NCBI GenBank assembly: GCA_965213705.1 | Contig: OZ243913.1 | Location: 1,216,001-1,280,000 of the forward strand | From: Trueperaceae bacterium | GTDB taxonomy: Bacteria > Deinococcota > Deinococci > Deinococcales > Trueperaceae | Length of the DNA stretch: 64,000 nt | Direction: 5' to 3' | In this document: in pieces, positions 24,865-62,042 of the stretch | Layout of the letters: each line of letters begins with the position of its first letter | Position numbering within the stretch: position 1 is the first letter of the stretch | Notes under the pieces: model-generated | What the model was told of the DNA's origin: nothing | The model's input: only the letters and a program-made list of their open reading frames with translations | The model's database searches: none | Translations under genes and position numbers: made by a program

Positions 24865-24892
24865 ACGTCTCATAAAGGAGGTTAAGTGACGT
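24865..24892. other. dif-like tyrosine recombinase site, family 1
   Basis: ACGTCTCATAA-AGGAGG-TTAAGTGACGT; arms 9/11 inverted. Confidence 0.65.
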
Positions 24893-24968
24893 TGATTACT
24901 CGGAGTCGGACTTTTCAAAATAAGTAACACAATGTCCTTCGGTTACTTACACCCTCACGCCAGTGAAG

Positions 24969-26495
24969 CTAAACATGCCTTCTGTTTTGAGAACTAAACC
25001 AGACCCGGTAAGTCAGCATCAAAGTGCGCGCTTCAGTCTCTGCCTTGAACTCGGGAAGTAAGCCTTTTCGGCAGGTGGGGCACCTGTTGTAAGGAAAACT
25101 TCTCGGCTTGGAGCGCCAAAACAAAGGTTCAAGCCCCGCCGGGATACGCGACGGGGAGGCGGTGACGAACACCATATCGGTGTTGCAGCAGCTGCTCTTC
25201 GTCACGACAAGTGGGCAGTGACCCGCTAACTTTGGGTCGACGCCGAAACGCTCAAGGTAACTTTTGACAAAGCTGAGCTTGGCAATGTCATGGTCGCCCT
25301 TGTGGGCTGCGGGTGAACGCGGTCTCGGCTGCAGCACGTGCCTGAACTGGCGATGGTGGTCCTGACAGCTCTCACACTCATGAGCCTTGCCGAACTGCCA
25401 GACGAAAGGGTCGTCGATGAGGTCTTTTATGTTAAGGCGAAGTGTCGCTTCGGCCGCTCGCTTTGAAAGTTGAGCCGTGTTGCGGGTGAGTTGAATCGTG
25501 GCTACTTGTTTACCGCCATTGAAAACGAGCACGCGCTCACCCGAGCGCCTGAACTGGTGGTGGCTCAGGCGCTTCGCCTCCAAGCGGCGGCCCTCGCAGC
25601 CGTCGTAATGCAGCCGGCAGTCGCTGGCAACCCGAATTTGCTCGGGTTCCGCCAAGGCCTCACTCAGAAGAAACCAAGCCGCGGCCATTGTCACCTCGTT
25701 CTGTGAGCAAGGCGCGTCGCCCTCGTGCAGAAGCGCGGGTGCTCGGCCGCCCGTGTCCAAAGAAACCAGTGCACCGCAAGCAGGGCAGGCGTACGCCGTT
25801 TCAGCCGAGGCGTTCTGGGCGTGAACCAACCCGACAGCGGAGAAAGCGTAGGGAACGGTTCGGCGCTGCCGGTCGCGTTCGGCGTCTCGAAGCTTTTGGT
25901 ACTCGTCGCACACGCCACACGACCGTTTGAAAGGCACCCTCGGTCGCCACACAGCCGGTTCGCCCTTGCGAACGGCTTCAAGCTCGAGCCACGGCAAGCC
26001 TGCCTCGCCGAGCGCTCGAGCCTTGGCCTCGCTCACCTCGTGCGCGTAGTAGATTTCGAACCCCATCACCACCGCGCCGGCCTGGAGAAGCGCAACGTCC
26101 AGGCGCTGACGACCGAACACCTGCTCGAGTGTGACCTGGTCGTAAGCGGGCAAGGCCACTTCGATGCGGGCGGTGTTTGTGCAACTCACGCGGCCGCCGT
26201 CCACGCTCTCGTGTCCTTGACAAGGTTGCACCAGGGTAAGGGTGTCGGGAAAACCCGCAAGATACTCGGCCAGGAGGCGCTTGCTCGCTTTGTGGAGAAC
26301 ACTCTCTTCAGTGCAGAATCCGCCGCGCGTCTCGGCGTAGTGCGCGAAGTGGGCCGCTCTCTTTGAGCCTCTGCGCACCCGGACATGGGTGCCGCAGTCG
26401 AGACACGTGTAAAAGTAGGCCAGCTTGGGGGCGGTAGCCGGGTCGGCGACGTTGCCCTCGGGCGTAACGGCGAAAGGAACCCCGTCGCCTTTCAT
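24969..26495 (-). CDS. CoiA-like zinc-finger/PD-(D/E)XK nuclease with internal duplication
   Basis: CLDCG...HFAH, ES.LH..K, E...RLDVAL...FEIYYAH; second degenerate copy VPYA...CPACG; leaderless start TAGACT-5 nt-ATG. Confidence 0.7.
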   Translation of the reverse strand: MKGDGVPFAVTPEGNVADPATAPKLAYFYTCLDCGTHVRVRRGSKRAAHFAHYAETRGGFCTEESVLHKASKRLLAEYLAGFPDTLTLVQPCQGHESVDGGRVSCTNTARIEVALPAYDQVTLEQVFGRQRLDVALLQAGAVVMGFEIYYAHEVSEAKARALGEAGLPWLELEAVRKGEPAVWRPRVPFKRSCGVCDEYQKLRDAERDRQRRTVPYAFSAVGLVHAQNASAETAYACPACGALVSLDTGGRAPALLHEGDAPCSQNEVTMAAAWFLLSEALAEPEQIRVASDCRLHYDGCEGRRLEAKRLSHHQFRRSGERVLVFNGGKQVATIQLTRNTAQLSKRAAEATLRLNIKDLIDDPFVWQFGKAHECESCQDHHRQFRHVLQPRPRSPAAHKGDHDIAKLSFVKSYLERFGVDPKLAGHCPLVVTKSSCCNTDMVFVTASPSRIPAGLEPLFWRSKPRSFPYNRCPTCRKGLLPEFKAETEARTLMLTYRVWFSSQNRRHV

Positions 26496-26824
26496 AGCTC
26501 AGTCTAAATAGCGACGTGCTGGTAAGACGTAAAAATTCGACACCTTACTCGGGGTGTCAGCTCACGTCTACCGAGTCGGAAAATCTGTTCGCACTTGACA
26601 GCCAAACGCGCTAAATACTTCACACTCACACACGTCATGAAATTTATCACCAGTCACAAGGCCGGTCATGAGGAAGGTACAGGGTGAGTCATAGATAGCG
26701 CCTCGACCTGGATAAGTCGACACATCTCCAGACAATTAAAGTGCTGAGAGGAAGAAAACTCGTCTGCTTCAAAAACACGGGAGAGTCGGCGTTGGGCCAA
26801 AAATCACTAGCAGTGAGGCACGAG

Positions 26825-27799
26825 CTAGTACCGCACCCGAAAGGTCGGGCTGTCCTCGGGTCGCATGGTCCGGCGGTCATAGCCCCTGGTCGTGTCGATT
26901 TTCGAATGCCCTACCCACTCCTGCACCTTGGCGATGTCCGCTTCGTGTTCCAACGCGTTGGTAATGGCCGTGGCCCGGAGGGCGTGGACACAAAAGCCGT
27001 CCACCGCCGAGACACCCACCTCGTCGGCATACTTTTTGATGAGGGTGAGCACCCCCCGGGCCGTCATCGCTTTGTCGATGCTGGTTTTACTGTTCTTGGT
27101 CACCGGTCTGAACAGGGGTCCGGCCTTGTCCGCTTTGTGGCCTGCCGCTTCGAGGTAGGTATCAATCAGTCGCAAAGACTGGGGTGCGGCCGGGATACTC
27201 CAGAGCTTGTCACCCTTACCGTGGACCCGCAACTGGGTCACGCCCCGGTCTTCGTGGACGTCTCTCACCGTGAGCTTGACAAGTTCACTGCGCCGCAGGG
27301 CGTGGAACAAAAAAACTGACAGGATAGCGCGGTCTCGTTGACCTTTCAAGGTGTCATCAGGTGGGGCTGCCAGTAGGGCTCGAGCCTGGGCGTCACCGAT
27401 GGCCGGGGTTTTCTTCGAAGGCTTGTCCGGGCGCTTGACCCCTTGGGTGGGGTTGACTTCAACGGCGTTGTTCTCACACAGGTAGTCGTAAAGCGAACTC
27501 ACCGCGGACAACTTGCGCCGAATCGTGGCCGCGGCCAGGCCCAGTTCTTTGAGCTGGTCGCGCCAGTGAATCACGTGGGACCGGGTGACGTGTCTAAACT
27601 CGGTCGGCTCGCTAATGCCCACGAACTGCATGAAGTCGCGGACGTCTCGCCGGTAAGCCACGCGGGTGTTTTCGTTGTCGAGGTTGGCAAACCATTCGAC
27701 TTCCGGGGGAACGTCCGCCAACGCCAAGAACTGCGCGTCGGTTAAGCGCCGGGTCTGAAGCGTGTGGGCTCGAGCTTTCGTTCTTTCAATGTCGCTCAT
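26825..27799 (-). CDS. Tyrosine recombinase (XerC/D-like)
   Basis: RDRAIL, ALRRSEL, HGKGDK, HALRAT, GH, TTRGY; leaderless start TAAAGT-6 nt-ATG. Confidence 0.93.
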   Translation of the reverse strand: MSDIERTKARAHTLQTRRLTDAQFLALADVPPEVEWFANLDNENTRVAYRRDVRDFMQFVGISEPTEFRHVTRSHVIHWRDQLKELGLAAATIRRKLSAVSSLYDYLCENNAVEVNPTQGVKRPDKPSKKTPAIGDAQARALLAAPPDDTLKGQRDRAILSVFLFHALRRSELVKLTVRDVHEDRGVTQLRVHGKGDKLWSIPAAPQSLRLIDTYLEAAGHKADKAGPLFRPVTKNSKTSIDKAMTARGVLTLIKKYADEVGVSAVDGFCVHALRATAITNALEHEADIAKVQEWVGHSKIDTTRGYDRRTMRPEDSPTFRVRY

Positions 27800-27830
27800 G
27801 CTTGGACTTTAACACGTGGCTACTCCTATT

Positions 27831-27858
27831 GGTACTCATAAAAGACGTTATAGGTAGT
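27831..27858. other. dif-like tyrosine recombinase site, family 1
   Basis: GGTACTCATAA-AAGACG-TTATAGGTAGT, ~30 nt upstream of the recombinase start. Confidence 0.6.
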
Positions 27859-27979: not shown

Positions 27980-28237
27980 ATGGAACAACTACAAAAACAG
28001 ACAATCCGTTTCGATAGCCAAGGTAGGGCACTTATACCTAAGGTCTTTCGTGAGGCGATGGGGGTTAACGGTGGCGGGGAAGCGGTCGCCTGGCTCGAGG
28101 AGGGACGGTTGGTCTTGGAATCCAGGGCGGCCTTGCTCGAGCGACTCAAGGCGCGTTACCGGGATGTCGAAGGCTCTATGGCCGACGAGCTTATTCAAGA
28201 GCGGCGCGAAGAAGCGGCGCGGGAAGCGCAGGAGTGA
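27980..28237 (+). CDS. AbrB/MazE-type antitoxin
   Basis: DSQGRALIPK.FREAMG; leaderless start TATATT-5 nt-ATG. Confidence 0.88.
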   Translation: MEQLQKQTIRFDSQGRALIPKVFREAMGVNGGGEAVAWLEEGRLVLESRAALLERLKARYRDVEGSMADELIQERREEAAREAQE

Positions 28238-28617
28238 ACGGAGGCCCGGAGGTGCTCGACGCTTCAGCGTTGTTGGCGCTGTTGCAGGAAGAGCCGGGTG
28301 GGGAAAGCGTCAAGTTGGGCGGTTCGGTCATCAACAGTGTGAATTTCGCTGAAGTGGTGCAAAAGTCGCTCGCAAAAGGGAAACCCGTGCAGCGTTTGCT
28401 CGGAGAGTTGCGGCTGTTGGGTTTGGAGGTTGCCCCGTTCACCCCGGAAGAAGGCGTGATGGCTGCCGAACTCTATAACCACACGCGCGCTGCGGGCTTA
28501 TCCCTGGGAGACCGGGCTTGCTTGGCGACGGCGCGTTCGAGGAACGGTGTCGCGGTCACCGCCGACCGAGCTTGGGACTCACCTGACCACGGTGTCGCGG
28601 TTCGGGTGATTCGGTGA
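28234..28617 (+). CDS. vapC: PIN-domain (VapC) toxin
   Basis: VLDASALLA, VNFAEV, GLSLGDRACLA, TADRAW. Confidence 0.9.
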   Translation: MNGGPEVLDASALLALLQEEPGGESVKLGGSVINSVNFAEVVQKSLAKGKPVQRLLGELRLLGLEVAPFTPEEGVMAAELYNHTRAAGLSLGDRACLATARSRNGVAVTADRAWDSPDHGVAVRVIR

Positions 28618-31067: not shown

Positions 31068-31298
31068 ATGGCGAAGAACCCATACCCACGCAAACGCTAC
31101 CGGGGCCGCTTGTCCTACCGCCACCGCGACGTGGCCGCCTTGCTGCTGGGCCGACCCTTAAAGCCGGGCGAGGTCGTACATCACAAAAGCGGCGACCGCG
31201 ATGATTACCACCCAGACAACCTGGGCATGTTCTCGAGCGCGGGCGCACACGCGCGCTATCACGGGGTGTCCCTAGAATTGGAACGAAAACTGCGGTAG
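31068..31298 (+). CDS. Small HNH endonuclease
   Basis: HR.VA..LLGRPL..GEVVHHK.GD..D.HPDNL...H..H. Confidence 0.75.
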   Translation: MAKNPYPRKRYRGRLSYRHRDVAALLLGRPLKPGEVVHHKSGDRDDYHPDNLGMFSSAGAHARYHGVSLELERKLR

Positions 31299-32111
31299 GA
31301 ATTTGCTCACCCTCAGTTTTTCTGTCCTATCAAAGTTTCGCCTATATTTGCAAAATATCTTTTTTGACATAAATCCCAAAACTCAAAAAGTGGGATGGGT
31401 TTTGGAACGTAGTTTTTGAGACGGGTTTTGAAGCACTATAAAGCCGTTATTTGTGCGCTTTCAGTCAACATTTTTGATGTGTCACAAACCACCGTTTTAG
31501 AGACGGTTAGAGTTTGGCTACCGCACTTTCCGTACGGATTCTAGGGACACCCCCTCTTCACCTCTTCATCGACGGGGGCTACAAACGCACCTTTCAGGAG
31601 TGCGTCGAGGGCACGCTAGGCTGGAGCGTTGAGATTGGACCAGCGGGGGCATTTGAACCAAGAGTTACGGTTTGAGAGCTGATTTTAGGAGCGAAACCGT
31701 AATTTTCTGTTTTAGTGATTTGAAAAACGCTAGATTTTACTGGTTAAGCAAACCAACCTCTTCTTTACCACTCTCAGACTGGTCGAAAATCCATCTACAG
31801 GAGCCCTAAACTGCGTCAGTAATGCAGTTATAGTTTCAAAGGTAAGAAATTGAGGATAGGAATCGGGTTTCTTTACTCGCACTCACCGCCCATAACCGTA
31901 GGTTCCTGTTCAGATGCGCCCGCTGGTCCGGAATGTACCTTTTCGGGGGTTTGGGCGAAAAACCCCAATTTACAACGGCTGGATGACTTCTGGTGTGGTG
32001 TTGAACCGGAGCAAACGAGGGTTTCTCAGTTTACAAGGTTGGTTGCTTAGACTTTGCCACCAGTATCGACCTCTATCAGAAGCCCAAAACTCGTCCAGCT
32101 CCAATTTCAGT

Positions 32112-35968: not shown

Positions 35969-36034
35969 TCTCAAGCTTTCTTCGCAGACGATGGAGCGTT
36001 ATGGCGTTTTCTTTGTAAGAGTTGTTAGTTGTTA

Positions 36035-36276
36035 ACCTCGGGTGCTAGTTGTTTATGAAATACCAACAAGGCTCAAAAGCTTACCCATTGCGTCATAGAC
36101 GTTGTTTCTAGCCAATTTGGAAGGGTTCGGAAAGTCACCGCTAGAGGCAAAAAGCTTTGAGAATTCATGGAAAGTGTTTGTTCGGGTCGGTTATCGGTTA
36201 TGGTTGAAATACCAGTCTTCGTCACAGACGCACTTTCTCGGTTGAGACGGGTCGTTTATCTACCAGCACCCGAGGT
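36035..36276. mobile_element. ~242-bp MITE with IS982-like terminal inverted repeats
   Basis: ACCTCGGGTGCT...AGCACCCGAGGT perfect 12-bp TIRs; TGTTAGTTGTTA on both flanks; no ORF. Confidence 0.7.
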
Positions 36277-36314
36277 TGTTAGTTGTTAGTAAGCGCTTAC
36301 TAACAACTAACAAC
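36275..36314. repeat. 40-bp perfect palindrome of GTTGTTA heptamers (hairpin downstream of the fusion gene)
   Basis: GTTGTTAGTTGTTAGTAAGC|GCTTACTAACAACTAACAAC. Confidence 0.85.
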
Positions 36315-36322: not shown

Positions 36323-38935
36323 TTACTCCTCTAAGTAGACGTTATTTTGCAGCGAAACGAGTTGCAGCCCGAGAGCACCGGGATAAAGGTCCTTGACGTA
36401 ACTGTTGACAACCGCGTAACCGTTCTCGAAGTAGAGCGGGATGGCCGCCCGGTCCGCCATGATGATGCGCTGCGCCTCGAGCCAGAGGTCGTTTCGGGTC
36501 TCGAAGTCGAGGGTGGCGTTGGCTTCCTCAAGCAAGGCGTCGACCTCGTCGTTGTCGTAAAAGTGTGTGTTGGTCACGCCTATGTTGCCGCCGTAAAAGA
36601 GGGCGTTCAACCCTGTGAGGCTGGCAAAGCTGTAGTCGAAAAAGACGCCCGTGTCATTACCCTTCTGCAAGTCCTCGCCCCAGACGGCCCCGTCCTGCTG
36701 CAAGAGGTTGGCGTCGATGCCCAACTGCTGTAATTGCGTGATGAGGATGGTCAGCACCCTGGTCTGCGAACCCGCGATGGTCTTGATGTCGAAGCTCAGC
36801 GGCTCGCCGTCGCGGTCTAAGATGCCGTCGCCGTCGCTGTCGCTAAAGCCCGCTTCCTCGAGCTGTGCCAGCGCGGCTTCCGGGTCGTACGACCAGAGAC
36901 CGCGCAGCTCCGGGTCTTCTTCGAACTCGAACCAGTAGGGAACCTGCCCGTAGGCACGCCGACCGTACTCGCCGATCACCGAGGCGACAGCGGCGTCTAT
37001 GTCCATCGCTTTAGAGAGTGCGTCCCGCACGGCTAACTCGTCGAAAGGTGGCGTGGTCACGTTGATGCCCAGGCCCCGGTAAGACCCCGGTCCTGGTATC
37101 AGCTCGAGGTCGGGATTGTCGGCAAGCTGCGTGACCGAGTCGATGTTAAAGAGGTAAGGCACCACGTCGATGTCTTGCGCCTCGAGCGAAATCGTCTGTA
37201 CGGTCGGGTCGGGGATAAAAACGAACTCTACCCCGTCTAAGTTGGGTTTGATAAAGTAGTCTTCGTTGCGTTCGAGCGTGAGTTCCTGGTCGGGGGTGAA
37301 GGACTCGAGTTCGAACGGCCCCGAGCCTACCGGGTTGCGGGCAAAGCCCTCTTCGCCGAGCTGCTCGATGGCTTCTCGCGGCACGATCATCACCCGCGCC
37401 AAGCGGTTGGGGTCGCTCAGCAGGAAGGGGTCGGGTGCGGCGGTTTTAAGCTCGACCGTGTAATCGTCCAGCGCCGTCACGCTCTCGATATTCCCTAGGG
37501 TGAACGTCGTACTCACTTCAAGGAAGCGGTTAATGGAGTAAACGACATCGTCCGCCACGACTTTCCGGTTGGCACCTTCGGGGAAAACGTCGTTGCCGTC
37601 TTGAAAGGTCACCCCTTCGCGCAGCTTGAAAATCCAGGTGGTGTCGTCGGGGTTCTCCCAGCTCTCCGCGAGGTAGGGCGTGGCGCTGTAGTCGTCCAAG
37701 TCAGGCATGACGAGCGGGTCGAAGAGCTGGGAAACAGCGCCTAGTTCCCCGGTGGTCGTAGCCTTGTAAGGGTCGAGCTGCTGCATAGACTCGAAGGGCA
37801 CCGTCAAGACGCCCCCCTGGGTCTGTGCCAGCGCCACGGACGCGAGGACAAGCGAGATGAGAACGAGACCTAAGCCCACTAAACCGTGACTGGGGTTGGG
37901 ACTTGAGGGCTTACCCATTAAGGTGAGGATGCGTTTCAAAAGGGAACCTCCATTGGCTGCGAGACTGAGTTGGTTTTGGGGCTGACGCTGGAGCAAGCTT
38001 TGGGTGCGTAGCTGACTGAGTTGGCTGAGAGTTTGGGCGTAGGTGCGCGTGCTGCTGTTACAGACAGTCATCGCCGTAACGTCGCAGCCGTATTCGCGCT
38101 CCTGGCGAACCTGGCTCGATATCCACCAGACGGCGGGGTTAAAAAAGAGCAGGGTCTCAACGAGGTGTTGAAACAGGTTTACGAAAAGGTCGCCGCGTTT
38201 GATGTGCGCCAGTTCATGTGCGAGGATAAGCTCGAGCTGCTGCGGCGTCAGCCCGCTCAGCACACTGGTCGGGACTAAGATGAGCGGCTTGAGATAGCCC
38301 AAAACCATAGGGACATCGGCTATTTGGGAGAGTTTAACTTCTATGTTTTGGCTGAGTTTGAGCGTTTTATGCAGCCGCTGTACGGTGTTCGTGATCGCTT
38401 CCGGCGCACGCTGGACGAAGCTCGAGCGCAGCCGCCGAAGTGCCATCATATCGACCATCAGGCGTGCGGAGAGCGTGACGATGCCCAAGAACCAGGCGAG
38501 GACAATCCAGGGGAACAGGGACTCGAGCTTAAACTTCCAACGTCGCAAGGTTTGGGACGTAACGAACTCGGTTCGCGCAGTGACCGTTTCGGGCGCGGCT
38601 TGTAATGATTCCCCTAACTCAGGCGATGGTTTGCTGAGTGTGACGTGTTGTGCCTCCTCAGCAGATACAGGCTCCAGGCTGAACGGGCTTTGGGTAGGAT
38701 TCGAGCCTCTTAGGTGTGCAAAGGTGAAAATGGGTAGGGCCAGGCATGACAGAAGTGCTAGCAAACTGAGGCAGTAACGCTGATTCGGGCTGAGGCTTCT
38801 GCCTAACCACAAAAGAACGGCGAGACCACAGGCGACAGTGACACCCTGCCAGAGGGAATGGATGAGGACTCGCGCCAACAGCTCTACGCTCTGGGAGGTG
38901 AGCAGTGACTCAAACATCGTCATCTTCCGACTCAC
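36323..38935 (-). CDS. BlaR1-type M56 metallopeptidase fused to a family-5 ABC peptide substrate-binding domain
   Basis: N-terminal HSLWQG, PMVLG..KP.I.VP, HELAHIKRGD, ERE.GCD, LKRI; TM ending ALA-Q; C-terminal LDP, PYLAESW, FKLREGVTF.DG, PVGSGPF, VR.AL..A.D, DGDGILD. Confidence 0.88.
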   Translation of the reverse strand: MSRKMTMFESLLTSQSVELLARVLIHSLWQGVTVACGLAVLLWLGRSLSPNQRYCLSLLALLSCLALPIFTFAHLRGSNPTQSPFSLEPVSAEEAQHVTLSKPSPELGESLQAAPETVTARTEFVTSQTLRRWKFKLESLFPWIVLAWFLGIVTLSARLMVDMMALRRLRSSFVQRAPEAITNTVQRLHKTLKLSQNIEVKLSQIADVPMVLGYLKPLILVPTSVLSGLTPQQLELILAHELAHIKRGDLFVNLFQHLVETLLFFNPAVWWISSQVRQEREYGCDVTAMTVCNSSTRTYAQTLSQLSQLRTQSLLQRQPQNQLSLAANGGSLLKRILTLMGKPSSPNPSHGLVGLGLVLISLVLASVALAQTQGGVLTVPFESMQQLDPYKATTTGELGAVSQLFDPLVMPDLDDYSATPYLAESWENPDDTTWIFKLREGVTFQDGNDVFPEGANRKVVADDVVYSINRFLEVSTTFTLGNIESVTALDDYTVELKTAAPDPFLLSDPNRLARVMIVPREAIEQLGEEGFARNPVGSGPFELESFTPDQELTLERNEDYFIKPNLDGVEFVFIPDPTVQTISLEAQDIDVVPYLFNIDSVTQLADNPDLELIPGPGSYRGLGINVTTPPFDELAVRDALSKAMDIDAAVASVIGEYGRRAYGQVPYWFEFEEDPELRGLWSYDPEAALAQLEEAGFSDSDGDGILDRDGEPLSFDIKTIAGSQTRVLTILITQLQQLGIDANLLQQDGAVWGEDLQKGNDTGVFFDYSFASLTGLNALFYGGNIGVTNTHFYDNDEVDALLEEANATLDFETRNDLWLEAQRIIMADRAAIPLYFENGYAVVNSYVKDLYPGALGLQLVSLQNNVYLEE

Positions 38936-39317
38936 TTTCTAAGGCGTCAAGGAGGTCTTGAATTTTTGCCAGGTCTTCTTGAGAGGGGGTATCAGTCGCA
39001 AGGGCTCGAGAGATGAGGCGCATAGTCGAGCCGCCGAAGACGGTGTGTTTGAGCCTTTTGATGAGCTTGGCTTCTACCTCCTCTTTGGCATGGGCGGGTT
39101 GAAAGATATGGCTTTTACGTCCCTTATCTCGTGCAAGCAAACCTTTCTTGAGCATGATGGAGAGGATGGTGTGGACCGATGAGTAGGCTAAGGGTTTGGC
39201 TCGAGCTTCGTTCAGGCGCTCTACAATGTCTCGAGTGCCCAGCGGTCCAGCCGCCCACAGCACCTGCAAAATGTCCATCTCCCTGTCCGTCGGCGTTTCC
39301 TGTCTGGGTCTCGGCAC
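38910..39317 (-). CDS. BlaI/MecI/CopY-family repressor
   Basis: TDREMDILQVLW, LAYSSVHTIL..M..KG, VFGGS. Confidence 0.92.
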   Translation of the reverse strand: MPRPRQETPTDREMDILQVLWAAGPLGTRDIVERLNEARAKPLAYSSVHTILSIMLKKGLLARDKGRKSHIFQPAHAKEEVEAKLIKRLKHTVFGGSTMRLISRALATDTPSQEDLAKIQDLLDALESESEDDDV

Positions 39318-39444: not shown

Positions 39445-39655
39445 CCATAGCGCCGCCGGTTGGCACAGTCGGCCAGCAGGCACGCGACACCCTCAGAGTG
39501 AGGGCGTGCCAGCGGCCAACGCCGTCATACGGAACTACGCGGCGCACCAGAGCGCGCCCGAGCTTGGGGTGCTTGTACGCGACGTACCCGACCCTCGAGC
39601 CTCACAAGCCTGGGGTGACGTGCTCGAGCTGGCTATGGAGGTGGTAGGAAAGTGA
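39445..39655 (+). pseudogene. parA: Plasmid ParA C-terminal remnant (frameshifted)
   Basis: APPVGTVGQQARDTLR, then in another frame VIRNYAAHQSAPELGVLVRDVPDPRASQAWGDVLELAMEV*; stop overlaps the next GTG. Confidence 0.7.
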
Positions 39656-39915
39656 GCGCCAAGAAAGCCAGGTTCGACTACCTCAAGCAAGAAACGAGCG
39701 AGCCGTCCGCCGATGCCCGACCTGAGCCCAGTGCGGAAGAGCTGCGCAGCGTGCCGCGTGGCGAGGGCCGCATGGAGCAGGACCGCGAGCAGCTAAACGT
39801 CCGCTTGCCCACCATGCTTAAGCGTCGCGCCGCGGCCAAGGCAACTCTCGAAGGCCGCACTATCGGCGAAGTTGTGGAGGAGCTACTGAACGGATATTTA
39901 GAACAGCCCTTTTAG
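39652..39915 (+). CDS. ParG-like ribbon-helix-helix partition protein
   Basis: Disordered N-terminus, then QLNVRLP..LKR.A..KA..EGRTI.EVVEELL..YL. Confidence 0.7.
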   Translation: MSAKKARFDYLKQETSEPSADARPEPSAEELRSVPRGEGRMEQDREQLNVRLPTMLKRRAAAKATLEGRTIGEVVEELLNGYLEQPF

Positions 39916-39982
39916 GGGTAGTACACCGATCGGAGATAAAACTGTCGACATATACATGATTTAGAGTCGAAAGGTAGGTAAC

Positions 39983-40285
39983 ATGACCTACCTTCCCGGC
40001 ACCATCGCCTACGCCAAGCGCGCCAGCACCCTGTGGAAAAGCGGCGAGCGCGGCGTCTGCTACGAGGTCTACCAGATTAGTGAGCGCCCCGGTTACAGCT
40101 TCAATTTCGCAGGGGGTGGTTACGACGGTTTCAGCGAGGACGACCTGTCATACTGGCTCGAGCTAACCGAATAGGTCGCTCCCTCGTTCGCAGGCTTCAA
40201 GTTCAAAAACGTCATACACCTCTCCGGCGCTTATGATGCAGGCTGGTTCGACGAGGCCCTGAAGAAACCTTTGAGCAAAGCCTGA
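39983..40285 (+). pseudogene. Hypothetical gene with in-frame TAG at 40172
   Basis: AGGTAGG RBS; protein-like frame continues past the stop (FAGFKFKNVIHL..AYDAGWFDEAL). Confidence 0.55.
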
Positions 40286-40332
40286 CTAGACCTAACCTAC
40301 GCCTCGAGCCACGTAATAAACCCTCACCACTA

Positions 40333-40360
40333 ACCTCTGATAATCTATTTTATCAGAGGT
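40333..40360. other. dif-like tyrosine recombinase site, family 2
   Basis: ACCTCTGATAA-TCTATT-TTATCAGAGGT, perfect 11-bp inverted arms. Confidence 0.8.
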
Positions 40361-40769
40361 AAATGTCTGTATATATAAGCCTAACTTTGTGCAGCAGTTG
40401 GACCGTTCAACTGCCTAAGGGCAAGCCCCACCCAACTACACATCACCCTTTTCTCGCAAGTAGGTGCGTGTCGTCTGAGTGATACCGAATGGTACCGTCT
40501 TTCCACCTGTGCCGTTGATGGTTCTGTGTAGAAATGGACTGTGGGTTGAGCGCGCTACTAATAAAAATCCCAGCGTTAAGTTAGGAGTTTGAGTTTCTAT
40601 ACCTGCTTTACCCCTCCGGTGCGGTTAAAGGTACGGTAGCGATGTCAGAAACTGTTTTGCACCTTTTCTCCGCTAATTCTATGTGAATTGGCACACAATC
40701 ACGCTAAAACCTGACAACATCGCAAAACAAATCATTCTGATGTAAGAGTTGAATGGCTATAATAGAGTC

Positions 40770-42590
40770 ATGATCATTGCCCCTTTACCCTCCGATGAAG
40801 CGGTACGCTTGCAGACGCTCGAGGCTTACCACATCCTCGACACACCCCCCGAAGAAGCCTTTGATACTTTGGCGGGCCTAGCCGCCGACATCGTTCAGAC
40901 GCCGGTTGCGCTAGTTACTTTTATTGCTCAAGAACGCCTGTGGTTCAAAAGCTGCTCTGGTGTAGAAGCAACAGAAACCCCTCGAGACATTGCATTTTGC
41001 GCCCACACGATTTTGAGCGATGAGATCATGGTGGTGCCCGACGCCACCCAAGACGAACGCTTTGCCGATAATCCATTCGTCACCGGTGAGATGGCTGTTC
41101 GTTTCTACGCGGGCGTGCCGCTCATCACCCCCACGGGTCAGCGGCTCGGCTCGCTCTGCACCATTGACACGACGCCGCGAGAAGGCGTGACACCCGAACA
41201 GGCAAAGATGTTGACGCGACTGGCTAAACTGGTCGTTGACGAACTCGAGCTTCGCAAAACGTTGCGTACCGCTACCGAGCTGAGCGACCAGCTCGCCCAC
41301 CGGGCGTTTCATGACCTTCTCACAGGCTTGCCAAACCGCGCTTACCTGCAAACGCTGTTGGCCGCCGAAGCTAAGAAAAGCCACCCTGAGAAGTCCGTTG
41401 CCATGCTCCTCATCGACTTGGACAATTTTAAGACCATCAACGATAGCCGCGGCCATGATGTAGGCGACCAGGTTTTGGTCGCGGTGAGTCAACGGCTGCG
41501 CCAGGCGGTGCGTGGCACCGATACCGTTGTGCGCTGGGCAGGGGACGAGTTTGTCATTGTCAGTACAGCTTTAGACGATGCCGCACACGCCGAACAGATG
41601 GCTGAGCGGGTGCTGAAAAGCTTAGAACAGCCGCTGTGTCTGGACAGGGGCCCGCTGACGCTGAGTGCCAGTGTCGGGGTGACGGTGGGACCCGCAGCCA
41701 TGTTTGCCCAGGAAGGGCAGGTTCTTAAGCAGGCCGATTTGGCGCTCTACCAAGCGAAGAAAGTCAAAAATACCGCCGTGGTCTTTACCGGCGCGTTGCT
41801 GACGCAGTTTACCGAGCAGTACAGCCTGGAAAAAGACTTGCGTGACGCGGTGGAAACCTCGGCGCTCACCTTGTTTTACCAACCCCGAGTTACGCTGTCG
41901 TCACAGCGCTGGACCAGTGCCGAGGCGCTGCTACGCTGGCAGCATCCGACGCGCGGCATGGTCTCACCAGCCACCTTCATCCCAGTGGCTGAAAAGAGCG
42001 ATCTTATCTTAAAGCTCGGCACCTTTGTGCTTGACCGAGCGTGCGAGCAAGCCGCTCGCTGGCTGGCGGCTGGCACGCCGCTACGCGTAGCGGTGAACGT
42101 CAGTACCAAACAGCTCACGCAAGATACTTTCACTGACCTGGTGATGACGACCCTGGAGCGTTACAACCTTCCCGCCGATTTGTTAGAACTCGAGATAACC
42201 GAGAGCGCCTTTATCCTGGATGTTGCAAAGAGTATCGCGACGTTAAAAGAACTCAAGCGGCGCGGCGTGCATATCGCTATGGACGACTTCGGAACGGGCT
42301 ATTCCTCGCTCAACACCCTTACGCAGCTTCCCCTTAACGTGCTCAAGCTCGACAAAAGTTTTGTGGACCGAATCTCAACGGAAATGGCGCGGCAAGACCA
42401 AGCGGTGATGGAACTGGTGATTGCGCTCGGGAAGAGTTTGGGGCTCGAGGTGGTTGCCGAGGGAATTGAAACGACCGAGCAACATCGTTACCTGCTCGAG
42501 CTGGGCTGTGCTCAGGCGCAAGGTTATCTGTTCTCTAGGCCGGTGCCAGCGCATATGCTGGCGATTCCTAGCATTGAAGTAGTGCATTAA
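40770..42590 (+). CDS. GAF-GGDEF-EAL c-di-GMP cyclase/phosphodiesterase
   Basis: ILDTPPEEAFD/FCAH GAF, HDLLTGLPNR, RGTD I-site, AGDEF, EALLRW, DDFGTGYSS; leaderless start TATAAT-6 nt-ATG. Confidence 0.93.
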   Translation: MIIAPLPSDEAVRLQTLEAYHILDTPPEEAFDTLAGLAADIVQTPVALVTFIAQERLWFKSCSGVEATETPRDIAFCAHTILSDEIMVVPDATQDERFADNPFVTGEMAVRFYAGVPLITPTGQRLGSLCTIDTTPREGVTPEQAKMLTRLAKLVVDELELRKTLRTATELSDQLAHRAFHDLLTGLPNRAYLQTLLAAEAKKSHPEKSVAMLLIDLDNFKTINDSRGHDVGDQVLVAVSQRLRQAVRGTDTVVRWAGDEFVIVSTALDDAAHAEQMAERVLKSLEQPLCLDRGPLTLSASVGVTVGPAAMFAQEGQVLKQADLALYQAKKVKNTAVVFTGALLTQFTEQYSLEKDLRDAVETSALTLFYQPRVTLSSQRWTSAEALLRWQHPTRGMVSPATFIPVAEKSDLILKLGTFVLDRACEQAARWLAAGTPLRVAVNVSTKQLTQDTFTDLVMTTLERYNLPADLLELEITESAFILDVAKSIATLKELKRRGVHIAMDDFGTGYSSLNTLTQLPLNVLKLDKSFVDRISTEMARQDQAVMELVIALGKSLGLEVVAEGIETTEQHRYLLELGCAQAQGYLFSRPVPAHMLAIPSIEVVH

Positions 42591-44056: not shown

Positions 44057-44062
44057 GCCAAG

Positions 44063-44668
44063 ATGGTTCACCGCGTTGATGACGCTGACATCCTCAACCT
44101 TTGCCGTCCTCTAACCAACCAGCTCGCCTGGCGCTACGTCGCCTACAAGTACCTCCTCCAACCGGAGCCCGAAGCGAAACGGCCGTTGTCCATCGTGGGC
44201 AGCTTAAAGGGCGGCGGGCGGTACAACATCGGCCTCAACCTGCCCGGCTTTGAACCCTTCGGGGCCGTCTACACCAGCCTCGAGGCGGTCACCGCCACTC
44301 GGGAGATGCGCTTTCCTAGCGCTCCGGAAACGCCTTATGTGCTCTTTCCCGTTCGGGCTACGCTGGCGCGGGTTCTGGACTTGCGTGCAGAAAATGTCAT
44401 CAAGGTGCTCGAGCTTGAAGGAGACCGACTCTACAGTCCCTGGCGCGAAGAAAGCAAGATTCTGGGCCGACCAGCGTACCCGCAGCTTGTTGGAGCAAAA
44501 CTCTTCAGCGCCGGCGTCGAGGCAATACTCACGCACAGCGTGGTTGACGAGGACAGCACCAACCTCACGATTTACCCGGCCAACTTGACGGGCGACAGCC
44601 GCGTGAGCGTCACGGGCGACGTGGACGACCCGAGGGTGGTCGACGTGCTGCTGCCGGAGGACGTCTAG
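44063..44668 (+). CDS. RES-domain toxin
   Basis: WR...GGRYN...AVYTS.E..TA..E, VLDL, HSVV, NL.IYP. Confidence 0.85.
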   Translation: MVHRVDDADILNLCRPLTNQLAWRYVAYKYLLQPEPEAKRPLSIVGSLKGGGRYNIGLNLPGFEPFGAVYTSLEAVTATREMRFPSAPETPYVLFPVRATLARVLDLRAENVIKVLELEGDRLYSPWREESKILGRPAYPQLVGAKLFSAGVEAILTHSVVDEDSTNLTIYPANLTGDSRVSVTGDVDDPRVVDVLLPEDV

Positions 44669-44877
44669 CCCGAAAAGGCGGCTTCACTTCGCAGTCACCA
44701 CCTTTCGGCTGCGCTCCGGAAACATTAAAGTGCAAAACGAAACACCTATTGAGCAAAGACACCGTTGGCTAACCCCCACTGTCAAAGGGTCGGGCGGCCT
44801 ACCATAGTCTGACAAGCCTTTTTTGAGCGTTGCGCTCGAGGCAGGGCCGAGCTGCGAACTAAGACGGGAGAAGTTAG

Positions 44878-45093
44878 ATGGACTGGGAAGAAATCAGCCG
44901 TAACTGGGACAGGTACCGAAAGGACGCGCAACACACCTGGAACAAGCTACCCGCTCCCGACCTCGACGCCACGGCGGGCGACCGCGACAAGCTGATAAGC
45001 AGCGTCAGAGAAGGTTTGGGGCTGTCGCTCGAGGCGGCCGAGACCGAGGTCGACGCTTGGGCTAAAAGAATGACCGAGATTCAGTCCACCTAG
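44878..45093 (+). CDS. CsbD/YjbJ-like stress protein
   Basis: W..I..NW......Q..W.KL...DL....G.RDKL......G...E.AE.EVD.W. Confidence 0.75.
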   Translation: MDWEEISRNWDRYRKDAQHTWNKLPAPDLDATAGDRDKLISSVREGLGLSLEAAETEVDAWAKRMTEIQST

Positions 45094-45111
45094 TTCACTT
45101 GGAGGCAAGCC

Positions 45112-45315
45112 GTGACACAGTATGACCTTAGCGACCCAGTGATTCCACCGATTGAAGAGCCGACACCTGGCAAAGATGTTCCCAACCCAGACATGCCTGA
45201 CCAGCAACCGCCCGGAGTCGACGAGCCGGGTGAGGACCTGCCAGGCATCGACGAGCCGCCTGGAGACTTGCCCGACCAGGTACCGCCGGGTACCGACTTG
45301 CCCGGAAGACGGTGA
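45112..45315 (+). CDS. Small Pro/Asp-rich repeat protein
   Basis: GGAGG RBS; repeats PPGVDEPG/LPGIDEPPG/LPDQVPPG. Confidence 0.6.
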   Translation: MTQYDLSDPVIPPIEEPTPGKDVPNPDMPDQQPPGVDEPGEDLPGIDEPPGDLPDQVPPGTDLPGRR

Positions 45316-45508
45316 CGGCGTAGCTTCACTGTCACTCGGGTTTGCCAGGAGTCGAGCCGAATAGGCTGGTTGTAAAGGCCAGTGAAAAACCTACGCTCGC
45401 CCCAAAACGCCGATAAGGGCAAGGCGAAGGTAGCCGAGGCGAACCCCAACCGGGGCGACCGCCGCTGGTCTCCTCATGGTCGTGGCTTGCACATTGCTGT
45501 CCTGTCGC

Positions 45509-45548
45509 GCTGCCAAGCTAGCGCGAGATAGCTTGGCAGCGTCTTTTC
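45509..45548 (+). terminator. Hairpin terminator
   Basis: GCTGCCAAGCTA-8 nt-TAGCTTGGCAGC followed by GTCTTTT. Confidence 0.6.
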
Positions 45549-45562
45549 AACCCTGCCCTGTA

Positions 45563-45589
45563 ACGTCTCATAAAGGACTTATCAAGCGT
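45563..45589. other. dif-like site, family 1 (5-bp spacer)
   Basis: ACGTCTCATAA-AGGAC-TTATCAAGCGT; first 15 bp identical to 24865-24879. Confidence 0.6.
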
Positions 45590-45603
45590 CCTACACGTCA
45601 TCT

Positions 45604-46026
45604 CTAGCTACGTTCAGCTTTGTCTTTCAGCCTCGAGTCCAACTCTACCAAACTGACGTCCTGCCCTGTCAACCGCCAGCCAATTCCCCGGCTGCGCCCG
45701 TTCCAACGCAAGTAACCCAGCTCCTCCAGCACCACACCGAGGTAGCTCGCCCCCTGGGCATAGGTCGTGTTGGGCTTGATGGACATAAGCGTCATCCCCA
45801 ACCCCGGCCGCTCAGTCCCAGCACCCAACTTCTCGACGTTGTTCGCCAAAGGAAACTCGTTGGCACCGAAGGCCGCCTCGAGCCTGCTCAACAGCTCGAC
45901 CAGGTCGCCCACCGGATAAGTGTGAACGAAATTCTTCTCGTTCCGAATAATGACACACTGACCGGTAATGTCGAAGTGCCACTCGAACCGCTTGGCCCGG
46001 TTCGGCCCACCGCGCGTGCTAGACAT
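45604..46026 (-). CDS. Hypothetical protein
   Basis: Leaderless start TATGCT-6 nt-ATG; FPLANNVEKL...ASYLGVVLE.LG...WNG. Confidence 0.65.
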   Translation of the reverse strand: MSSTRGGPNRAKRFEWHFDITGQCVIIRNEKNFVHTYPVGDLVELLSRLEAAFGANEFPLANNVEKLGAGTERPGLGMTLMSIKPNTTYAQGASYLGVVLEELGYLRWNGRSRGIGWRLTGQDVSLVELDSRLKDKAERS

Positions 46027-46249
46027 AGTGAAAGCATAAACGGCGTTCCTAAACGACGGCGTGAAACAAACCCCGGCTCGCCCACTCCCTAAACTGTCCC
46101 CATGACCAAATAAGAGTTCGAAGAAGGTGAAACTTGGGCCTACCGCAGCCCCAAGGCCCTCGGCACGCCCGCCGCCCAGGTGGCCCTCGTGGTTCCTGCC
46201 CAACCGCAAGGGCGCGGTCAAGGTCAAAGCGTAGTAAAATCACCTTGTC

Positions 46250-46882
46250 ATGTTTCGTAAACCAAGGAAACCTGCAAGCCAAAGGTTCGAACTCGCCCGG
46301 ATTCACGCGGCTGCCCTATCAGGGATGCTTTTCTTGTCGGCAGAAGATGAAACGGCCTTTTGCAAAGAATTCTGGCGGCGGGTCGATGTCAACAACCACG
46401 GTTGCTGGAATTTCAAGGGCTACACGACCAAACGCGGCTACGGCCGTATCTCGGTCCCCAGACGTTGGCAGGGATACTTACCCAAAGCGATGGCCGCTCA
46501 TCGGCTTGCCTATCTGCTGGCTCGTGGCGATATTACGGAAAGTTCTATGGTGCTACACACCTGCGATAACCCACCGTGCTGTCGACCTGATCACCTGTAC
46601 TTAGGTTCTTACTTAGAGAATGCCCAGGACAGGGTGTTTCGCGGTCGCCACGTCGCTCTTCGTGGTGAGGAAAACGGCAGCGCGAAGCTAACCGAGGCTG
46701 CTGTGTTGGAAATAAAACGCAAGCTCAGGAATTACAACCCAAAAAAGGTAAGAACATATAGTTCGTTCGATAGAGAACGCCCCTTAACCTTGGCAGGTGT
46801 TGCCCGAGAGTTTGGCGTATCTGTAAATACGGTAACAAACATTCACAAGGGGAAAACCTGGACGCATGTAAAACCTGACTAA
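46250..46882 (+). CDS. Phage-type HNH endonuclease with C-terminal HTH
   Basis: GCW.F.G...GYG, AHRLAY, VLHTCDNPPCCRPDHL..G...EN..D, GE.NG.AKLTE, AREFGVS. Confidence 0.88.
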   Translation: MFRKPRKPASQRFELARIHAAALSGMLFLSAEDETAFCKEFWRRVDVNNHGCWNFKGYTTKRGYGRISVPRRWQGYLPKAMAAHRLAYLLARGDITESSMVLHTCDNPPCCRPDHLYLGSYLENAQDRVFRGRHVALRGEENGSAKLTEAAVLEIKRKLRNYNPKKVRTYSSFDRERPLTLAGVAREFGVSVNTVTNIHKGKTWTHVKPD

Positions 46883-46941
46883 TACAACTTTTTTGAGTTC
46901 TTTAAAACACTCCAATTTGTGCTGCTCTCGTATCTACCCCA

Positions 46942-46969
46942 ATCTCTGGTAATCTATTTTATCAGGGGT
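46942..46969. other. dif-like tyrosine recombinase site, family 2
   Basis: ATCTCTGGTAA-TCTATT-TTATCAGGGGT; 25/28 identical to the 40333 site, same spacer and orientation. Confidence 0.75.
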
Positions 46970-60272: not shown

Positions 60273-61214
60273 TCACCACTCCCCAACCGTCTCTTTGAGC
60301 TTTTGGTTGTCGGTGTGGGCGTAGCCCCGAGCCGTGTCGAGCGAGCTGTGCCGCAGGTGGTCGGCCACCAACGCAATATCTCCTTGCTCATGGCGAATGC
60401 GTGTCCCGGCACTGTGCCTGAGCGAATGCACTCCCTTGAAGCGCACCTTCGCCCGCCGGCACACACTCTTCAGCCGGTCATAGACAACCTGACGACTCCG
60501 GCAGGGGAGAAGGTAGCCTTGACGTTCTGTGAGAGGAACCTGCTCGAGCGCCTCGACGAGCGTCTGACTCAAGAACATCGTGCCCTGCTTGCCGCCTTTG
60601 CCCTTTTTGACCGTCAACTTCTTCTCACTCAGCCGGATGTCTTCCCAACGTAACGAGGTCATTTCACTGACACGCAAACCGGCGTGGGCTCCTAAAAGAA
60701 CTATAGATAAGGTATAGCCTTCAGCCACCCGAGTCAGCCATTCGATTTCGTTCAGGGTGTAAGCCTGCCGCTTTTCCCAGGCCGGGGTGAGGTCGCGGCC
60801 GGGTTTGACATCGGCAAAGGGGTCAAACGTGGTAGCACCGCTCCAGCGCAGGGCGGCGTAGAGGGCGCGAGCCGCGGCCAGCTTTACCCGGACGGTGGCG
60901 GGCTTAAACGCGGCTTCGAGTTCCCGGACCCAAAGTACCCCGGCATTTCTTGAGGGTCGCAGCAGCGCCTCACCCGACCACGTGTCGATAAGGTGGAACA
61001 CGTACCTTCGGTAACTCGTCAGGGTGTTGCTGGACACTCTCGAGCCCGCCGAGCCGTGCAGGGTCAGGTGGGCTTCGGTCAACTGCCACAACGCTTCCAA
61101 GTCCCGGTCCCTTGCTGCTTCGGCGGCGAACCGGTGCAGGTCCTCTTCGCTCAGAAGCGCCAAGTCTCGAGTCCTTGCCATGAGGTTGGTATTGACTTTT
61201 GCCAGGTCGCTCAT
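60273..61214 (-). CDS. Tyrosine recombinase
   Basis: AGLRVSE, KGKGGK, HSLRH, LRH, TARGY; ATG overlaps the PIN gene stop. Confidence 0.92.
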   Translation of the reverse strand: MSDLAKVNTNLMARTRDLALLSEEDLHRFAAEAARDRDLEALWQLTEAHLTLHGSAGSRVSSNTLTSYRRYVFHLIDTWSGEALLRPSRNAGVLWVRELEAAFKPATVRVKLAAARALYAALRWSGATTFDPFADVKPGRDLTPAWEKRQAYTLNEIEWLTRVAEGYTLSIVLLGAHAGLRVSEMTSLRWEDIRLSEKKLTVKKGKGGKQGTMFLSQTLVEALEQVPLTERQGYLLPCRSRQVVYDRLKSVCRRAKVRFKGVHSLRHSAGTRIRHEQGDIALVADHLRHSSLDTARGYAHTDNQKLKETVGEW

Positions 61215-61627
61215 CCGGGCACCTCGACCCTGAGATAAGCGAAACGAGCAAAGTGTTTGCGGTTGAAGGCATAAATTGTTTCCGGCCCTTCTGCGAACAG
61301 TTGGGCGGCAATACAAGCGTCGATAAAGTCTACGTTCTTTTCCTCGTACCACACAGCCGCTTGCAACAGCTGGTCGTTCGCCTCAACCTTCAGACCCGGC
61401 GTGTTGAGCACGGCCAATACTGCGTCACGCACTTGGCGCTTGGACTTTTTGTAAAAACTTTCCAGCGTCCACACAATTTCGGCGATGACAAGTTTGCTGG
61501 TCGTCAGTTCGGTCTCACCGGCTTCGGCACGCTCAAGCAGCCGTTCTACGGCGTCCGCCTGCTCGGGTACGTCGTTAGTCAAGTACCTCAAGAACAAGTT
61601 GGCGTCGACGAAGGCACGTTCAGCCAT
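61211..61627 (-). CDS. vapC: PIN-domain toxin
   Basis: FVDANLFLRYL, VIAEIVWTL, DFIDA, F.RKHF. Confidence 0.9.
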   Translation of the reverse strand: MAERAFVDANLFLRYLTNDVPEQADAVERLLERAEAGETELTTSKLVIAEIVWTLESFYKKSKRQVRDAVLAVLNTPGLKVEANDQLLQAAVWYEEKNVDFIDACIAAQLFAEGPETIYAFNRKHFARFAYLRVEVPG

Positions 61628-61874
61628 CGTCGTCGTCAACCTCGGGTTTGGCTCTGGTAGCTTTTACAGCCGCGCGCACGTGCTCGAAATCCTGTGGCCC
61701 ATCAACCTCGACCGAACCGCGCAGGCTGCGCAAAGTATTGACTAAGGGTTGCAAGGTCACATCGTCACCTTTTACGACAAACGCAACCCGTTGACCTTCC
61801 TCGAGCCGCAACCGCTCCGGAACTTCACGCGGCAAAGTGAGTTGTCCGCGTCGGCCAAGTTTGGCTGTTGTCAT
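61620..61874 (-). CDS. AbrB/MazE-type antitoxin
   Basis: AKLGRRGQLTLPREV; GGAGG RBS. Confidence 0.88.
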   Translation of the reverse strand: MTTAKLGRRGQLTLPREVPERLRLEEGQRVAFVVKGDDVTLQPLVNTLRSLRGSVEVDGPQDFEHVRAAVKATRAKPEVDDDDG

Positions 61875-62014
61875 AGCAACCTCCCAAAAAAGTAAAACGC
61901 ACCGCAAAATTAGGTATGACTGTCATATTTCATTTTAGCAGCAAATAAATACAGTTACAAGAGCACATCAGATTATCCAGGCGCTTTTGCTTGTTGTGAA
62001 TGTTAATACTAAAA

Positions 62015-62042
62015 TACATACATAACAAACATTATGTAGGTT
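62015..62042. other. dif-like tyrosine recombinase site, family 3
   Basis: TACATACATAA-CAAACA-TTATGTAGGTT; arms 9/11 inverted. Confidence 0.65.

Follow-up and report, generated by a model that had tools for sequence, protein, structure and literature searches.

As far as the analogy goes, the described systems closest to the locus reported here are plasmid resolution modules of the rfsF/ResD type. On IncR plasmids, homology ends at rfsF and the acquisition of DNA has been attributed to rfsF-ResD (PMC9412624). Our locus consists of seven short inverted repeats that resemble crossover sites of tyrosine recombinases, together with two intact tyrosine recombinase genes, here called YR-A and YR-B, in a 64,000-nucleotide stretch of the chromosome of a Trueperaceae bacterium (assembly GCA_965213705.1, contig OZ243913.1; G000:C1:1216001-1280000, where G000 is the source genome). 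We refer to this whole stretch as the window and number its positions from 1. Modules of this kind (rfsF/ResD and rfsF/RsdB) resolve plasmid multimers and adjoin vagCD or ccdAB, a layout known from the F plasmid. The likeness to our locus lies in a single plasmid-encoded recombinase with its own site and an adjoining toxin-antitoxin (TA) pair, and in plasmid homology that ends at the site. The recombinases concerned here belong to different, apparently unnamed clades; the likeness is one of module layout, and five orphan sites of two classes lie in one Deinococcales chromosomal island.

Other systems share parts of this layout. PMC13141974 describes pdif sites as 28-bp 11-6-11 sequences with distinct XerC and XerD arms, similar to the host dif, used by chromosomal XerCD and bordering alternating C and D modules. 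Acinetobacter pdif modules resemble our locus in having 11-6-11 sites between blocks, TA pairs and cargo, spacer matching and direct repeats that predict excision. Unlike pdif sites, those of the window have symmetric arms and match enzymes of three plasmid-encoded clades, with one compatible pair only. XerS/difSL is a single-recombinase dif system, and our locus is like it in that a site lies immediately upstream of a lone recombinase gene. Tn5401 and TnBth4 are Tn3-family elements with a TnpI tyrosine resolvase, an irs site and a TA pair (PMC7157771). Their divergent arrangement of TA pair, resolution site and resolvase is like the one at position 27831, and Tn3-type ends are present in the island; however, the combination of tnpA and terminal inverted repeats around a resolvase is lacking, no tnpA lies beside YR-A or YR-B, and the sole catalytic remnant of a Tn3 transposase is at 3.40 Mb of G000. 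None of the annotated plasmid neighborhoods examined for two of our three recombinase classes (A and C, below) contained tnpA.

For Deinococcota, the portion of PMC9764985 examined uses E. coli dif and mentions no native dif, the available main text of PMC8138268 does not mention Deinococcus, and PMC6015842, in its accessible part, speaks of multimer resolution in general terms only. In the literature covered, which lies mostly outside subscription papers, we found neither the three classes of site set out below nor a comparable array in Deinococcota described. What the window very probably holds is a mixed set of plasmid resolution sites, mostly relics, piled up at the block junctions of a chromosomal island. 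They are not pdif or integron elements by membership, although a similar way of working may be possible.

Seven sites in the window

The window lies inside a low-GC stretch at about 1.16–1.30 Mb (56–59% against a median of 61%). A second island (island 2), which follows tRNA-Trp at 3.38–3.46 Mb, shares pieces with it, including a near-identical recombinase fragment and Tn3-type ends. A first-pass annotation, made from the letters of the window, had placed six intergenic motifs at 24865, 27831, 40333, 45563, 46942 and 62015. Every coordinate checked out, all six motifs lie outside Pfam-supported genes, and we found a seventh that had been missed. The classes A, B and C given in the following list are defined in the next section.

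16391–16418, minus strand: seventh site, class C; minus-strand spacer AGGACA and one degenerate arm; 111 bp past the end of the CBASS (cyclic oligonucleotide-based antiphage signaling system) operon
24865–24892, plus strand: orphan class C site, spacer AGGAGG; between the sugar operon and a CoiA-like gene
27831–27858, plus strand: site beside YR-A, spacer AAGACG, intermediate between classes A and C; positioned as in relatives
40333–40360, plus strand: orphan class A site with perfect arms, spacer TCTATT
45563–45589, plus strand: decayed class C site whose spacer, AGGAC, lacks one base
46942–46969, plus strand: orphan class A site, spacer TCTATT; 25 of 28 positions identical to 40333, in direct orientation
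62015–62042, minus strand: class B site, upstream of the antitoxin-toxin-recombinase operon

The 28-bp 11-6-11 layout is present except at 45563, where one spacer base has been lost and 5 bp remain. Written as arm, spacer and arm, the sites are ACGTCTCATAA-AGGAGG-TTAAGTGACGT (24865), GGTACTCATAA-AAGACG-TTATAGGTAGT (27831), ACCTCTGATAA-TCTATT-TTATCAGAGGT (40333), ATCTCTGGTAA-TCTATT-TTATCAGGGGT (46942) and TACATACATAA-CAAACA-TTATGTAGGTT (62015), with 9, 7, 11, 8 and 9 of 11 arm positions complementary, respectively. The site at 16391 sits in an unsupported 5′ extension of the open reading frame (ORF) 16301–17122, whose homology to its island 2 copies begins at 16601. As had been reported, two sites lie upstream of a recombinase gene or operon: 27831 is 32 bp from the YR-A gene (26825–27799, minus strand) and 62015 is ~140 bp from the abrB-vapC-recombinase operon that encodes YR-B.

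Such sites are more frequent than chance predicts, the question that the first-pass annotation had left for a background check. TAA-N6-TTA cores number 196 genome-wide, and 31 of these have arms complementary at 7 or more of 11 positions; the window contains nine cores, including five of the 31. The five strong 11-6-11 palindromes compare with a mean of 0.81 and a maximum of 4 when the window is shuffled locally (in 200-bp stretches, 500 times); none of the 500 shuffles reaches five, and each of the other 65 64-kb bins of the genome contains at most two. One further core, at 33445, scored poorly in all three class matrices described below (ranks 8862, 4922 and 2350) and was not counted as a site.

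Sites of three recombinase clades

Matrices for the site classes were built solely from foreign loci, and ranks are genome-wide (4.25 Mb); genome tallies over the phylum and counts of the SATAA motif include the unpublished genome G251, on which nothing else here depends. Judged by sequence, the seven sites fall into three single-recombinase clades and not into one system, and they are very probably recombinase resolution sites of these clades. The first-pass annotation had also recognized three families; three classes do exist, but its first family was a mixture in which 27831 scores as class A and 24865 and 45563 as class C. The genome-wide matrix scan that it had proposed puts 40333 and 46942 (class A) and 16391 and 24865 (class C) at or near the top.

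A strict class A site occurs within 1 kb upstream of the recombinase gene in 35 of the 49 metagenome loci with enough flank, as against 2 of 57 downstream (80 loci taken). The spacer consensus is AATA[CGT][AG], read along the gene in 32 cases and against it in 21. In the class A matrix (50 unique foreign sites), 40333 ranks first, an island 2 site (G000 3404299) second, 46942 third, 27831 sixth and 24865 1358th. The spacer shared by 40333 and 46942, TCTATT or AATAGA, is also found upstream of the class A relatives L174 and L213. An exact 20-base pattern taken from these two sites gave seven matches across genome contigs, in unrelated Bacteroidota and Bacillota, and these were taken as chance.

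Class C sites, with spacer AGGAC[AG], are defined by a sister clade of YR-A (35% identity), which is represented in 122 plasmid records and in 3 of 251 genomes; no class C recombinase gene was found in G000. A site with spacer AGGA.. lies upstream in 12 of 14 loci (the query's own locus included; 10 of the 122 plasmid records taken). The resulting matrix (12 foreign sites) ranks 16391 first, 24865 second and 27831 18th, and once a spacer column is dropped, 45563 comes first and its copy in island 2 second. The left arm of 24865 is one base off the arm upstream of the class C recombinase in genome G217 (GCGTCTCATAA-AGGACA). A viral collection yielded one weak class A locus and no class C locus.

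For class B, an 11-6-11 site under a relaxed definition lies within 1 kb upstream in 27 of 29 relatives, as against 0 of 28 downstream. The site most like 62015 belongs to a 52% homolog of YR-B; the second and third most similar sites belong to two of its three closest homologs (65–68%), and the site of the remaining close homolog matches at 14 of 28 positions. More broadly, SATAA-N6-TTATS occurs in 106 of 121 genomes of the family, compared with 52 and 50 for controls with 5- and 7-bp spacers, and many of the 121 have one to four copies and no copy with a control spacer.

Some related observations stand apart from these assignments. A simple origin of 27831 as a class A × class C hybrid was considered and rejected, since of its two arms the one resembling class A faces the TA pair of class C type. 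Near class A recombinase loci (L192, L204, L223, L227, L228, L231, L233 and L091), orphan sites of class C type turn up repeatedly, mostly 37–76 bp after a stop codon. Genome G199 contains 31 copies of SATAA-N5-TTATS, as against three in a reversed control, an unexplained repeat.

YR-A, YR-B and the host paralog

26825–27799, minus strand: YR-A, intact simple tyrosine recombinase (class A; PF00589 and PF02899)
60273–61214, minus strand: YR-B, intact Deinococcales-type Xer-like tyrosine recombinase (class B), last gene of the abrB-vapC-recombinase operon

The two enzymes are barely related to one another, and both keep all six catalytic residues, which in YR-A are R169, K195, H272, R275, H298 and Y307, invariant in a six-sequence alignment. 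The YR-A clade is represented by 138 plasmid records, mostly from Proteobacteria (the top 40 at 53–60% identity), by at least 572 confirmed metagenome stretches, and, within the phylum, by only 8 of 301 genomes. The YR-B clade, by comparison, is present in 219 of the 301 and on 39 plasmids, all from Deinococcus. YR-B probably starts at 61214, overlapping the vapC stop codon. By sequence and position, 27831 is likely to be the cognate resolution site of YR-A and 62015 that of YR-B. The traits of resolution modules are thus present in intact catalytic residues, a conserved symmetric site upstream and plasmid-borne homologs in all three classes, often with TA pairs.

Models of XerC, XerD, XerS and integron integrase were run on five of the six PF00589 genes above cut-off, as full proteins. 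The best XerC and XerD scores were 147, compared with cut-offs of 335 and 330, and YR-A and YR-B fall far under the cut-offs of all four models. Another recombinase, P0003, is a chromosomal paralog of YR-B (32% identity) that adjoins smc. Octamer skew, estimated with a prior split at 2.5 Mb, peaks at 2,469,494, no more than about 3 kb from P0003; GC skew peaks at 2.54 Mb. Of the two paralogs, YR-B is the mobile one with linked TA genes, and P0003 the chromosomal member of the clade. In contrast to a terminus dif of the XerS type, the window lies at 1.22–1.28 Mb and the skew switch, where P0003 is found, at ~2.47–2.54 Mb. A candidate host dif, picked by eye at G000 2466457–2466484, is 1.2 Mb from the window and differs in arms and spacer.

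The chromosomal Xer-like gene of Deinococcales is next to smc, or close to it, in several genera (G000:C1:2465362-2466484, L008 and L056; L025–L047; L144–L152), usually with a conserved upstream site of consensus AAACCTGATAA-CTCGTC-TTATCAGACCT. In the source genus the candidate host site has diverged, its arms lacking ATAA, yet it lies at the skew switch. An internal fragment of YR-B, 99% identical, is found right after tRNA-Trp at the edge of island 2 (G000:C1:3382433-3382972).

Orphan sites as candidate crossover scars

How could sites of this kind come to lie between unrelated blocks? The palindromes match sites upstream of three plasmid-type recombinase clades and are therefore likely to be single-enzyme resolution sites. 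We infer the following binding, recombination and order of events. Each enzyme would bind both symmetric arms and cleave where these meet the 6-bp spacer, and its normal role would be to resolve multimers at the site before its own, often TA-led, operon; a module would comprise the site, an optional TA pair or small genes, and the recombinase. A crossover between sites on two replicons would part one product site from its gene and strand it between unrelated blocks. In this window 27831 and 62015 still adjoin intact genes. The class C sites are probably relics, since no class C enzyme is present and two of the sites have decayed. The full account, in which single-enzyme resolution sites and orphans that are crossover scars would have joined plasmid-derived blocks into a low-GC chromosomal island, has in our estimate a probability of about 0.6.

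The density of sites is unlike that of foreign loci. Of 102 foreign class A and C loci, together 716 kb, 61 have a single site and six have two; 35 lack one and none has three, whereas the window has six class A and C sites in 31 kb with a single class A/C recombinase gene. No remnant of a recombinase lies on either side of any of the five orphans. Comparison of public plasmids reveals breaks of the kind that a crossover would leave, at sites of these classes. Two Sphingobium plasmids (L256 and L257) are 99.8% identical from inside the far arm and unrelated beyond it; two Pseudomonas plasmids (L239 and L266) share the near arm and operon at 93.9%, with the spacer inverted; and L212 and L223 (99.7%) likewise break inside the site. 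Within the window, the left flank of 40333, a probable remnant of plasmid backbone at 39520–40288, is 85% identical in DNA to an island 2 copy (G000 3404348–3404697), and the identity ends at 40343, the last base of the left arm and thus the arm/spacer edge. Since near-identical plasmids diverge inside sites and one flank in the window loses homology at an arm/spacer edge, the orphans are likely to be crossover scars. The copy of 45563 at G000 3454785 shares only the site, with different flanks. Control points 60–300 bp inside the recombinase module are mostly crossed by alignments.

Several results count against this interpretation. The ATAA/TTAT core is common to all three classes. Because of this overlap, 40333 scores high in every matrix, taking first place for class B as well and third for class C, and it is the spacer that tells the classes apart. 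The outer arms and spacer of 27831, the site of YR-A itself, differ from those of 40333 and 46942, and six Trueperaceae-family relatives of YR-A (L080–L084 and L086) have no strict site in the flank examined. At 80% identity, 11 alignments stop at the site and two run across it. At the 3′ end of the recombinase gene, however, 59 stop and 8 run across, which makes the breakpoint test unspecific; at 90% identity or more, three end and two cross at the site, compared with three and six at the gene end, and the pairs are not independent. The two copies of 40333 carry different spacers, and the island 2 copy has a second TCTATT site 32 bp on, so that a small indel would account equally well for the break at 40333. 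The class A site in island 2 keeps its TA pair without a recombinase, which shows that a gene was lost without a crossover at the site. Finally, DNA searches, each against five related genomes, gave no alignment across any site or junction of the window.

In island 2, at G000:C1:3404299-3404358 (L129), two site-like 28-mers 32 bp apart lie upstream of a ribbon-helix-helix-like/PemK TA pair with no recombinase, and one of them shares its TCTATT spacer with 40333 and 46942, 2.1 Mb away.

The 6.6-kb block and the search for movement

40361–46941, no strand: 6.6-kb block between directly repeated class A sites, with a GAF-GGDEF-EAL gene, a Phd-PIN TA pair, a RES-toxin pair, the decayed class C site and an HNH gene

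Among the six 28-bp sites compared, 40333 and 46942 form the only pair that matches at all six spacer positions; all others match at four or fewer. A series of modules with compatible spacers is thus reduced to one pair. From the direct repeat one would expect a circle of 6,609 bp that carries the two TA pairs of the block. YR-A would act in trans to excise the block, and the two TA pairs would penalize its loss.

The first-pass annotation had suggested that reads might reveal circles or empty sites. In the contigs of four runs, no circle, empty site or joint at a site was seen among the 15 of 85 matches listed, and contigs from the probable source sample run unbroken across both 40333 and 46942. 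One lower-depth contig from that sample links 40264 to 45620 with unknown letters between, which could represent an empty form or a paralogous module. The idea that locally encoded recombinases shuffle TA-stabilized modules therefore holds in part. The sites are very likely to be those of tyrosine recombinases, they lie between unrelated blocks and TA pairs cluster among them, but the class C enzyme is absent; with a single spacer-matched pair and no joint among those matches, shuffling at present is not borne out.

Other explanations and implications

It is also possible that the window is a passive graveyard, in which sites arrived on plasmid fragments through insertion sequences, Tn3 elements or illegitimate recombination, their genes were later lost, and the sites did not build the island. 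Remnants of Tn3 transposase and resolvase, Tn3-like inverted repeats (31263–31553 and 31637–31929) and several insertion sequences in the island and its twin at G000 3.38–3.46 Mb fit this view, as do the class A site in island 2 that has a TA pair but no recombinase and the breakpoint control, in which edges of conservation mimic crossovers. We nonetheless think it unlikely, though far from implausible: no recombinase remnant flanks the five orphans, the Tn3-type ends of the window are not at site-marked junctions, the copy of 45563 has just the site in common, and near-identical plasmid pairs break inside the site and not merely nearby. Were the passive reading true, the window would hold ordinary plasmid debris and useful site annotations.

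Considerably less credible is an active pdif-like array in which a host Xer-like recombinase, or YR-B, acts on all sites. The arms of 40333 and 46942 do resemble the CTGATAA..TTATCAG site upstream of the chromosomal paralog in related genera (ranks 1 and 3 for that matrix), 16391 and 24865 are inverted around a TA pair and sugar operon, and a relative, G268, has 21 SATAA-N6-TTATS sites, of which two fall on synteny breaks against congeners; versions with a 5- or 7-bp spacer number 1 and 2 there. However, the spacers fit plasmid classes A and C and not the host-type CTCGTC, the candidate host site of the genus, itself picked by eye, has diverged arms without ATAA, there is neither an XerC/XerD pair nor an asymmetric arm, and one spacer-matched pair is all there is, with no site joint among the contig matches listed. 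The single pdif- or integron-like system envisaged in the first-pass annotation is at odds with sites from three clades, symmetric arms and recombinases that reach no XerC, XerD or IntI cut-off. An integron-like array with attC-type cassette sites is scarcely conceivable. Some class C orphans closely follow a stop codon, but the integrase model (TIGR02249), with a cut-off of 265, gives scores of 39.8 and 45.6, the blocks contain multiple genes in both orientations, and the sites are 28-bp palindromes of the double-stranded type, with no Rfam match anywhere in the window (no dedicated attC model was run). That the palindromes are operators for a TA antitoxin or recombinase repressor, and not crossover sites, is very improbable as well. 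Both 27831 and 62015 lie between divergent promoters, and one promoter-like match puts a −10 box in 62015, but the fixed, asymmetric 6-bp spacer is conserved per clade across phyla and follows the recombinase and not the neighbors, and several sites come after stop codons with no adjoining gene start.

In the draft genome G268, several SATAA-N6-TTATS sites bracket single genes, and the homology of paralogous genes begins at the site (L094–L108 and L114–L119). It may hold a real multi-site system, or the pattern may reflect an assembly artifact or an unrelated repeat; locus L094 had no syntenic match in five congeners.

The class assignments supply explicit candidate target sites for three common, apparently uncharacterized recombinase clades. 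The reading that we favor, in which the orphans are crossover scars, also suggests that plasmid resolution sites, besides host Xer and pdif sites, serve as joints for accessory islands, here in a Deinococcales chromosome. A bolder proposal, which we regard as possible but doubtful, is that these unnamed plasmid recombinases constitute a host-independent network of module exchange across phyla, an equivalent of pdif run by mobile single enzymes, with the island as its product and the 6.6-kb block still excisable by YR-A. Since the same spacer recurs across phyla (AATACR in class A, AGGACR in class C), resolution sites might be mutually compatible, and blocks for defense, sugar uptake and signaling would then have been strung between sites of the chromosomal island. 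If conserved spacers do make the sites of unrelated plasmids compatible, gene blocks would be exchanged by a route so far overlooked, and the pairs of enzyme and site could find use as recombination tools.

Neighboring genes and other repeats

Besides the two tyrosine recombinases, the window carries genes for restriction, the CBASS operon, operons for the uptake of sugars and peptides, and at least six TA loci of PIN type. The features closest to the sites are as follows.

24969–26495, minus strand: CoiA_N-domain gene (Pfam PF25164), between site 24865 and YR-A
27980–28617, plus strand: AbrB-like antitoxin and PIN toxin (PIN match), divergent from YR-A
39520–40288, plus strand: likely plasmid-backbone remnant, from translations; ends with a stop-interrupted copy of a 103-amino-acid ORF
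61211–61627, minus strand: vapC-like toxin, PIN label assigned by eye; upstream of YR-B
61620–~61877, minus strand: AbrB/MazE antitoxin (MazE_antitoxin match); upstream of YR-B
62204–62837, plus strand: second AbrB-PIN pair, of the same family as 27980–28617, with a frameshifted toxin

The TA pair at 27980–28617 is 48% and 59% identical to a pair in G199 flanked by a class C site on one side and the recombinase of that site on the other. We take the remnant at 39520–40288, by eye and without a family match, to encode the truncated C terminus of a ParA-like protein and a small ParG-like protein (39652–39915). Homologs of the 103-amino-acid ORF were found in two other genomes of 251, neither with a site behind it, and the ORF beside 45563 had no homolog in 120 other genomes.

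The CBASS operon (13415–16279) encodes a phospholipase effector, a cyclase and an E2-like protein and is followed by the class C site at 16391. At 36323–39317, the peptide ATP-binding cassette transporter operon is preceded by genes for a repressor like BlaI and for a BlaR1 (M56) peptidase that carries a fused family-5 solute-binding domain, an arrangement that is syntenic in G199. Just before it, an intergenic stretch of 250 bp (~36030–36280) has many copies at 75–82% identity in G199 and G231 and may be a small mobile repeat. The adjacent gene-less elements at 31263–31553 and 31637–31929, each ~290 bp with 36-bp terminal inverted repeats, are likely to be Tn3-derived miniature inverted-repeat transposable elements, since one end matches DNA beside the Tn3 transposase remnant (G000 3400407). 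ARAGORN reported three loci in G000 that resemble transfer-messenger RNA (2202004, 2604421 and 4112539), and positions 45424–45482 of the window match the first at 88%. Elsewhere in the genome, near a ribosomal protein cluster, a perfect 21-6-21 inverted repeat with a TAA-N6-TTA core that matches none of the site classes lies at G000:C1:2344720-2344767.

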